64,000 bases of DNA from a virus (IMGVR_UViG_3300045988_060496:114625-178624), one strand, 5' to 3'; shown: positions 44,175 to 44,246, counted from the first letter of the stretch. Notes: generated by a model not told the origin, from the letters alone. Numbers and translations are program-made.

Positions 44175-44246
44175 TGCCCTATGGTGTAATGGTCAGCACA
44201 GATGACTCTAAATCATTTAGTCTGGGTTCGAATCCTAGTAGGGCAA
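44175..44246 (+). tRNA. amber suppressor tRNA, anticodon CUA, derived from tRNA-Gln (tRNA-Sup(CUA)/Gln-like)
   Basis: TGCCCTA-TG-GTGT-AATGGTCA-GCAC-A-GATGA-CTCTAAA-TCATT-TAGT-CTGGG-TTCGAAT-CCTAG-TAGGGCA-A. D-arm region CTATGGTGTAATGGT is shared with the phage tRNA-Gln(UUG) at 30391-30460; U1-A72 as in tRNA-Gln. Confidence 0.8.

Follow-up and report, generated by a model that had tools for sequence, protein, structure and literature searches.

A stretch of 64,000 nucleotides of viral DNA (IMGVR_UViG_3300045988_060496:114625-178624; the whole of it is called the window below) carries at positions 44175-44246 on the plus strand a transfer RNA (tRNA) gene with a CUA anticodon. This gene very probably encodes a functional amber-suppressor tRNA that forms the conserved core of a switch to genetic code 15, in which TAG is read as glutamine. 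The window is a portion of the genome of a crAss-like phage of ~185-190 kb. The tRNA, the register of its anticodon, the selection acting on it, its synteny, the partition of TAG usage along the window and the equivalence of TAG with glutamine codons were all established directly. The gene is termed B-type here, as a second tRNA(CUA), termed A-type, lies on the minus strand. The element and its anticodon are located as follows.

44175-44246, plus strand: B-type tRNA(CUA), identified by ARAGORN, Rfam RF00005, covariation, conservation and synteny
44208-44210, plus strand: anticodon CUA at tRNA positions 34-36 within the loop C32-U33-C-U-A-A37-A38, from the Rfam alignment and from reading the sequence

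The B-type gene was called by ARAGORN at 44175-44247 (+) with the anticodon cta at position 34. The covariance model RF00005 matched 44175-44246 over model positions 1-71 of 71 with 66.3 bits (gathering score 29), and no non-canonical pairs were flagged. The 72-nt molecule has an acceptor stem of 7 bp (UGCCCUA/UAGGGCA) with U1-A72, G2-C71, C3-G70 and the discriminator A73, a D stem of 4 bp (GUGU/GCAC) with a D-loop of 8 nt, an anticodon stem of 5 bp (GAUGA/UCAUU), a variable loop of 4 nt and a T stem of 5 bp (CUGGG/CCUAG) with the loop TTCGAAT. In the covariance alignment CUCUAAA forms the 7-nt anticodon loop with CUA in register. The CCA end is absent from the gene sequence. A first-pass annotation made from the sequence alone had described a clean 72-nt plus-strand cloverleaf with CUA at positions 34-36, on which ARAGORN and Rfam agree, and a U1-A72 pair, which is seen in the Rfam alignment. 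ARAGORN had also been proposed there as a check; it returned cta under the label tRNA-Pyl, and the covariance fold keeps CUA in register. The label itself was rejected, as it is merely the program's name for a CUA anticodon. The hallmarks of tRNA-Pyl are a 6-bp anticodon stem, a 3-nt variable loop and a small D-loop, and the B-type architecture differs from it with 5 bp, 4 nt and 8 nt, respectively. No pyl genes were found among the annotated open reading frames (ORFs) of the 64-kb window, which is part of the genome. ARAGORN listed 23 tRNAs in the window, of which 22 are on the minus strand (15.6-41.8 kb) and one, at 44175-44247, is on the plus strand.

Relatives were represented by 51 IMG/VR loci with related TerL genes, many of them on contigs of 142-193 kb and seven with a 97% identical TerL. 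At least 9 kb of sequence precedes TerL in 45 of the related loci, and 41 of these carry a B-type plus-strand tRNA(CUA) on the upstream side of TerL, at a distance of 5.2-9.2 kb. The tRNA is 99-100% identical among relatives, whereas its flanks (900 and 400 nt) reach merely 75-94%. In a more distant clade it is still 84-85% identical while the flanks, at ~50%, are unalignable. Seven distinct versions were aligned without gaps; 99.3% of their cells are paired and compensatory changes occur in nine of the 21 pairs. None of 500 shuffles reached this value, and sliding the partners by 1-3 columns left 0-1 such pairs. All seven versions agree in the D-arm, U33, CUA and A37. From this island of conservation and the compensatory pairs, the B-type gene is a real, conserved and functional phage tRNA subject to purifying selection, and chance is excluded. 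Dozens of public contigs hold identical copies.

It is hardly conceivable that the B-type gene is a decaying or non-functional relic while TAG is read by a host suppressor or through some other mechanism. Other routes do exist, as a suppressor is undetectable in many recoded phages (10.1101/2021.08.26.457843; PMC7886860), and the gene is missing near TerL in four related loci. A relic is contradicted by the perfect cloverleaf, the near-complete pairing with nine compensatory pairs, the invariant anticodon loop and the 100% identity of the gene where its flanks have diverged.

Some further observations concern the B-type gene and its surroundings. A tRNA(CUA) of this type, 82% identical to that of the window, is found in CAMJMP010000002.1 (L146), a 78-kb contig of a metagenome-assembled genome labelled 'uncultured Tenericutes bacterium', probably phage DNA that was binned with a bacterial genome. 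In three distant relatives (L029, L034, L045) the last ~40 nt 5' of the tRNA hold a conserved hairpin rich in AGCTAG/CTAGCT. The window's clade has a different small hairpin, TCTCT-AAA-AGAGA at 44153-44165, at the same place 5' of the tRNA.

The need for a TAG decoder is evident from the coding capacity of the window. Counted as stop-to-stop ORFs of at least 100 codons in six frames, coverage amounts to 46.6 kb with code 11, 78.2 kb with TAG as sense and 61.0 kb with TGA as sense. TerL and the portal are restored only with TAG as sense. The late ORFs were searched against PHROG with TAG masked as X; they matched TerL (phrog_6681, 3.9e-60) and portal (phrog_6547, 2e-41) as well as a tail protein and a reverse transcriptase. 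The portal also matches the structure of crAss001 gp20 (7QOG, E = 8.8e-12). Megablast of 40-52 kb against 50,697 GenBank phage records gave a sole match of 92 bp to crAss-like phage cr272_1 and no close relative. The late genes are arranged as follows.

48714-63514, plus strand: TAG-rich late module, 118 TAG versus 114 CAA/CAG (PHROG)
50117-52480, plus strand: TerL with 19 in-frame TAG (PHROG)
52672-54843, plus strand: portal with 28 in-frame TAG (PHROG, 7QOG)
60105-61922, plus strand: tail protein (PHROG)
62207-63514, plus strand: reverse transcriptase (phrog_1423, 1.9e-110)

The remaining plus-strand late ORFs from 48.7 kb onwards contain 4-21 in-frame TAG each, and TAG makes up 118 of the 232 glutamine-type codons (51%) of the late genes. 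In the minus-strand module its share is at most 7.7%, with several of the TAG codons at the very start or end of ORFs. The claim of the first-pass annotation that the tRNA explains the TAG-containing genes is borne out by this combination of an in-register CUA tRNA with conserved late genes full of in-frame TAG.

The meaning of TAG was read at the codon level from 45 distinct aligned TerL genes. At the 19 TAG columns of the window's gene, the non-TAG codons of the 44 relatives are mostly CAA (139) and CAG (51), together 52%, followed by GAA/GAG (59), GAT (29), CAT/CAC (7), AAA/AAG (5), TAC (2) and TGG (0). Two relatives whose TerL is free of any TAG (L046, L048) have glutamine at the fully conserved TAG columns. 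Over all 66 TAG-bearing TerL columns, glutamine is the commonest alternative in 24, compared with 3.4% of columns overall, and 24 of the 27 columns with a glutamine majority carry TAG in some relative. Across 18 genes of 13 close relatives, 421 swaps between TAG and CAA/CAG were counted versus ~90 of every other kind; these counts are phylogenetically non-independent, though their direction is unambiguous. CAA exceeds CAG, which indicates that the pattern is more than the one-step C-to-T neighbourhood of TAG. Two further comparisons were set aside. A residue test against protein databases gave Q at 64% of TAG-aligned cells and is circular, because nearly all relatives are TAG-recoded in TerL and Q is there the translation of the gene caller. 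The alignment of the window's portal with the standard-code crAss001 gp20 (~20% identity) is too distant to judge single TAG positions. From the codon comparisons, TAG almost certainly stands for glutamine in this phage. This had been predicted in the first-pass annotation, which had also named the TAG positions of TerL as the place to look, and there glutamine codons dominate. The result agrees with proteomics: TAG was identified as Q by metaproteomics in the 191-kb crAss-like phage L2_026_000M1_scaffold_35 (Peters et al. 2022, PMC9523058).

It is highly improbable that the B-type tRNA inserts another residue, be it glutamate (through a non-discriminating GluRS with no amidation), histidine, lysine or pyrrolysine, tyrosine or tryptophan. 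Glutamate codons do rank second at the window's TerL TAG columns (59 of ~367) and E is commonest in nine of the 66 columns, but glutamine codons outnumber them by about 3:1, and TAG-CAA/CAG exchanges account for ~82% of the changes among close relatives. The D-arm of the B-type tRNA is common to tRNA-His, yet the tRNA has neither the G-1 nor the C73 of tRNA-His, its base -1 being C and its discriminator A. Likewise, the 'Pyl' label from ARAGORN is at odds with the stem and loop sizes given above. Codons for histidine, lysine, tyrosine and tryptophan are rare at the TAG columns, and Q was found by proteomics in related phages (PMC9523058).

The ancestry of the B-type tRNA was approached through its closest relatives in the window and among bacterial tRNAs. 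Among the window's 25 tRNAs it best matches the following gene at 70% identity, with tRNA-Thr next at 68%.

30389-30461, minus strand: phage tRNA-Gln(UUG), the sense tRNA of the window closest to the B-type tRNA (ARAGORN; 70% identity)

The first-pass annotation had called the acceptor and D-arm nearly identical to those of this tRNA-Gln. The likeness holds for the D-arm region; overall identity is 70%, and the tRNA-Gln lies on the minus strand. A scan of 185,579 genomes of bacteria and archaea for the D-arm GGTGTAATGGTYAGCAC yielded at least 120 loci, with 102 tRNAs recovered among the matches listed. Of these, 70 are tRNA-His(GUG) from CPR bacteria, Pelagibacter and archaea and 30 are tRNA-Gln, and every listed match in Prevotella, Bacteroides, Alloprevotella and other Bacteroidales is a tRNA-Gln. 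Bacteroidales are the likely host group. Viral contigs with the same D-arm have glutamine anticodons in 36 cases and GTG in 13. Over the whole length, identity of the B-type tRNA to bacterial tRNAs is 48-50/72 for Gln and 46-54/72 for His, which does not separate the groups. Only the acceptor end (U1-A72, A73, no G-1) favours Gln over His. tRNA-His requires G-1 and C73, and the B-type gene has C at base -1 (44174) and A as discriminator. U1-A72 and A73 are common to the B-type tRNA and Bacteroidales tRNA-Gln, whereas the His genes have G1-C72 and C73. U1 is invariant among the B-type versions, and position 72 is A in five of the seven and G in one. U35 (within CUA) is present and G10-C25 is invariant, as in a substrate of glutaminyl-tRNA synthetase (GlnRS).

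The anticodon loop is C32, A37 and A38 in the B-type tRNA versus UUUUGGU in Bacteroidales tRNA-Gln, and this remodelled loop implies that the B-type tRNA is no one-step mutant. It has the A36-A37-A38 context that is typical of tRNAs reading UNN codons (MiaA substrates). A Bacteroidales-type tRNA-Gln origin is a plausible and the best reading, the basis for it being the acceptor end and the decoding result and not overall similarity. The description 'Gln-derived' of the first-pass annotation thus finds backing in the acceptor end and the Bacteroidales D-arm; it is unproven, the D-arm also being that of tRNA-His and whole-length identity being undiscriminating.

Several points weigh against the B-type tRNA as the glutamine-inserting core of the code switch, besides the non-independence of the swap counts. 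Four recoded relatives (L020, L025, L033, L049) have no B-type tRNA in the 9-10 kb that precede TerL. The D-arm is common to tRNA-His of other phyla, and identity of the B-type tRNA to Gln and to His overlaps (46-56/72). The acceptor identity set of E. coli-type GlnRS consists of G73, G2-C71 and G3-C70; G73 and G3-C70 are missing from the B-type tRNA (A73, C3-G70), and the G2-C71 of the window's tRNA is C2-G71 in distant B-type versions. Bacteroidales tRNA-Gln genes have A73 and U3-A70, and as the host tRNA-Gln also carries A73, the E. coli rule probably does not transfer to the host. Neither a release factor nor a synthetase was recognized in the scanned ORFs of the 64-kb window, and a phage synthetase or release factor may be encoded elsewhere in the ~187-kb genome, of which 64 kb were seen. 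Finally, a second CUA tRNA, the A-type, could carry part or all of the suppression.

The A-type tRNA was absent from the first-pass annotation, and the B-type tRNA is thus not the window's sole amber suppressor. The A-type follows a structured RNA at a distance of 31 nt.

41733-41803, minus strand: A-type tRNA(CUA), first in the minus-strand module (ARAGORN; Rfam 57.2 bits)
41835-42006, minus strand: RAGATH-14 RNA (RF03145) directly 5' of the A-type tRNA, 173.1 bits versus a gathering score of 149.1

Wherever the A-type tRNA occurs among the related loci (33 of 33, including L002, L005 and L008), a RAGATH-14-like RNA immediately precedes it on the 5' side. The anticodon of the A-type varies among phages with 87-97% identical TerL. 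The window is one of many phages with CUA; nine relatives (L001, L002, L004, L006, L010, L038-41) have UUA (ochre), and L042 has CUG, a sense glutamine anticodon. The loop is disrupted in others, with 6 nt in L015 and L016 and an odd form in L023. From these sequences, the A-type locus looks like an anticodon-switching hot spot, and the CUG variant ties the A-type independently to glutamine. The A-type is missing in distant TAG-recoded relatives (L029-31, L034, L043-45, L050-51), where the B-type alone is kept. For this reason the B-type is taken as the principal decoder of TAG, which it probably is.

The opposite assignment, in which TAG is decoded mainly by the A-type, co-expressed with the large tRNA array, and the B-type is redundant or a back-up, is considered unlikely. 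It would fit that the A-type scores well as a tRNA (57.2 bits) and has the CUCUAAA loop of the B-type, that it heads the minus-strand module holding the other 21 or more tRNAs, and that the gene upstream of the B-type tRNA already needs TAG suppression, which an earlier-expressed A-type could supply. Such a role is difficult to reconcile with the variation of the A-type among near-identical phages (CUA, UUA, CUG or a disrupted loop) and with its absence from distant recoded relatives that retain the B-type only. The B-type anticodon is invariant and the gene is present in 41 of the 45 loci.

Two ideas on the A-type cassette were rejected. Recoding of TAA in the UUA-carrying relatives was not seen, as no in-frame TAA was specific to these phages; the few in-frame TAA fell in a variable gene, in CUA and UUA phages alike. 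RAGATH-14 is no universal suppressor partner either: of 27 IMG/VR pattern matches, 13 are followed by an A-type tRNA and 14 (on contigs of 28-101 kb) are without a tRNA within 500 nt downstream. An Rfam scan at E <= 1 beside both suppressors found only RAGATH-14; theta ribozymes may be outside Rfam, and one may still be present in the 3' flank of the A-type. The B-type tRNA is followed by the next ORF after 17 nt, which leaves no room for a 3' ribozyme. In L029, which has neither A-type nor RAGATH-14, a RAGATH-1 hammerhead ribozyme (772-850, minus strand, 59.6 bits) was observed in the equivalent upstream region.

On the plus strand, the B-type tRNA belongs to the first module after a switch of GC skew and gene orientation at 42-44 kb. 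The order is a conserved motif, a 133-aa gene, a 46-aa ORF, the B-type tRNA, a TAG-free block and the TAG-rich late genes.

43571-43584, plus strand: conserved motif TTTTTTAACTT(TG) / TTTTTTAACTTTG, kept in relatives with otherwise unalignable flanks
43635-44036, plus strand: 133-aa gene, first of the plus-strand module, with three in-frame TAG, conserved in all relatives
44029-44169, plus strand: small ORF of 46 aa, or 39 aa if started at the ATG at 44050, which follows the 133-aa gene and precedes the tRNA
44264-48727, plus strand: TAG-free block with exonuclease-like, GroES-like and small ORFs, 0 TAG versus 32 CAA/CAG (PHROG)

The motif lies ~55-60 nt upstream of the 133-aa gene and overlaps a Bacteroidetes-type -7 box, TAACTTTG; it is a candidate promoter of the tRNA-carrying operon. 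As a general phage promoter TTTTTTAACTT was rejected, as it is not enriched in the window (five matches versus 7.5 expected). A sigma-70 promoter and terminator scan found fewer promoter-like sites than in shuffles, with a consensus that is unsuited to Bacteroidetes or to a phage RNA polymerase.

The 133-aa gene is syntenic with the B-type tRNA in all relatives; the distant ones are without TAG, and TAG occurs only in the window's clade. TAG exchanges with Q at codon 25, and the gene was called in an independent assembly. Its family comprises 117 homologues, all within this phage lineage. The protein had no Pfam or PHROG matches and no matching fold in the PDB (best Foldseek E = 0.25), although its AlphaFold model, with a three-stranded sheet and helices, is confident (pLDDT 87.8). 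In the 46-aa ORF, L017 has TAG in place of a CAA of the window. The first-pass annotation had placed the tRNA directly after the TAG-containing gene 43635-44036 and before the first standard-code genes; the order stands, and 'directly' does not, as the 46-aa ORF intervenes. The absence of TAG from the 32 glutamine-type codons of 44264-48727 would have a chance of ~0.48^32 if late-gene usage applied. This block is broken by three minus-strand ORFs (45555-46552) with 1-2 TAG each.

The following course of events would account for these features. The B-type tRNA would be transcribed within the first plus-strand operon, from the motif at 43571-43584 through the 133-aa gene, the small ORF and the tRNA into the TAG-free genes. 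Host RNase P and 3' processing enzymes would excise it, and the CCA end would then be added, since it is unencoded in the gene. Host GlnRS would charge the tRNA with glutamine; GlnRS reads U35 and a weak U1-A72 end and accepts CUA suppressors. The charged tRNA would compete with release factor 1 (RF1) at UAG, so that the late genes, with about half of their glutamine codons being TAG, would be translatable only after the suppressor has accumulated. We infer that host GlnRS charges the tRNA, that the tRNA is co-transcribed and processed in this way and with this timing, and that it descends from tRNA-Gln.

A further elaboration, which is entertained only tentatively and is rather doubtful, is a two-tier system in which a constant B-type tRNA is locked to the TAG-needing 133-aa gene and is complemented by a hypervariable cassette of RAGATH-14 and A-type tRNA (CUA, UUA or CUG). 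If this were true, the B-type tRNA and the 133-aa protein could form a self-delaying feed-forward timer. RAGATH-14 would then serve the A-type suppressor tRNA as a leader with a role in processing or regulation, and switching of the A-type anticodon would tune the strength and the identity of the stop codons read through.

Other features of the window and its relatives were recorded alongside. The reverse transcriptase at 62207-63514 has a YADD motif and in-frame TAG codons and closes the tail-gene block; adjoining the tail protein at 60105-61922, it could be part of a diversity-generating retroelement. Three minus-strand ORFs (6031-6855, 29533-29868 and 21091-21783) carry TAG as the final codon or five codons from the end, with a TAA or TGA behind it. 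These terminal TAGs may be genuine early-gene stops with a nearby back-up stop that limits read-through after the code switch. Insertions of 0.3-1.2 kb split TerL in several relatives (L028, L042, L047, L049) but not in the window, and a TerL homologue (P0003) contains the intein and homing-endonuclease Pfam domains PF05204, PF05203 and PF14528. The minus-strand ORFs 7239-8801, 9656-10483, 31011-32984 and 10921-11937, without in-frame TAG, are auxiliary genes for a nicotinamide/nicotinate phosphoribosyltransferase, two SPFH/Band-7 proteins and an OmpA-like outer-membrane protein. A transfer-messenger RNA (tmRNA) match of Rfam at 22778-23341 on the minus strand (66.2 bits, gathering score 47, E = 1e-23) spans 564 nt versus the 374-nt model and lies directly upstream of tRNA-Ile (22700-22774), where ARAGORN reported no tmRNA. 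It may be a phage-encoded or insert-containing tmRNA. Two minus-strand tRNA matches were made by Rfam without an ARAGORN call, at 24958-25030 (39.5 bits; UGC (Ala) anticodon loop, imperfect acceptor stem) and at 29401-29477 (31.7 bits).

For annotation, the consequence is that the window needs TAG to be translated as glutamine, as otherwise TerL, portal, the tail genes and the reverse transcriptase fall apart. The analysis adds for this lineage a codon-level demonstration of TAG as glutamine that is independent of gene-caller translations, and it points to the plus-strand CUA tRNA, rather than its variable neighbour, as the conserved decoder. The B-type finding itself opens no new question, and the phenomenon of amber suppression, its likely mechanism and its proteomic proof are already known for crAss-like phages of this size class. 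Two peripheral observations are possibly new, namely the RAGATH-14-linked, anticodon-switching A-type and the TAG-containing gene locked to the B-type, and both may be relevant to how phages time the code switch.

The closest cellular counterpart is supE of E. coli (glnV/glnX), a tRNA-Gln with a CUA anticodon and a U1-A72 end through which GlnRS-inserted glutamine is placed at UAG. This weak suppressor derives from a cellular tRNA by one base change. The B-type tRNA resembles it in the CUA anticodon and the U1-A72 end. Unlike supE, it has a remodelled loop (C32, A37, A38) and A73 and C3-G70 instead of G73 and G3-C70, and it serves a programmed, genome-wide recoding.

Among phages, recoding of TAG to glutamine with phage suppressor tRNAs was published for crAss-like phages of 145-192 kb (PMC7886860; 10.1101/2021.08.26.457843). 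Yutin et al. (2021, PMC7886860) describe the Zeta crAss-like phages as having large, intron- and intein-rich genomes recoded at TAG or TGA, and give TTG to TTA as an example of a Gln tRNA turned into a suppressor by an anticodon point change. As in that description, contigs of the window's relatives measure 142-193 kb, TerL and portal are crAss-like, TAG occurs mostly in late genes, tRNAs including suppressors are numerous, and TerL carries inteins or insertions in relatives. By description, the window phage is consistent with the Zeta group. It differs from this account in pairing one constant and one variable suppressor on either side of a strand switch, a pairing that is not described in the passages of PMC7886860 consulted. 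By its published features, L2_026_000M1_scaffold_35 (PMC9523058) is similar in size class, code 15, mapped suppressor tRNAs and recoded structural proteins.

Kienbeck et al. (2024, PMC10879173) reported theta (HDV-like) ribozymes adjoining tRNA-Sup(CUA) of gut phages with code 15. Their system shares with the window a phage tRNA-Sup(CUA) tied to code 15 and a structured RNA beside a suppressor tRNA. There, the cleavage site is within ~5 nt of the tRNA 3' end, whereas the structured RNA of the window is RAGATH-14 and lies 5' of the A-type. The B-type tRNA, unlike the tRNAs of that system, is without a detected ribozyme on its 3' side, where the next ORF follows.

Borges et al. (10.1101/2021.08.26.457843) proposed that code switching times the expression of late and lysis genes: early genes are in the standard code, the suppressor accumulates, receives glutamine from the host enzyme and outcompetes RF1, and TAG-rich structural genes are then translated. 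This published account (see also PMC7886860) is the best-supported mechanism for the window phage. The window differs from it in that no release factor or synthetase is present among the scanned ORFs, and in that the gene preceding the suppressor, apparently in one operon with it, itself contains TAG. It agrees with the model in its standard-code-compatible early genes, its suppressor tRNA, its TAG-rich structural block and an excess of TAG over CAA/CAG in some late genes.

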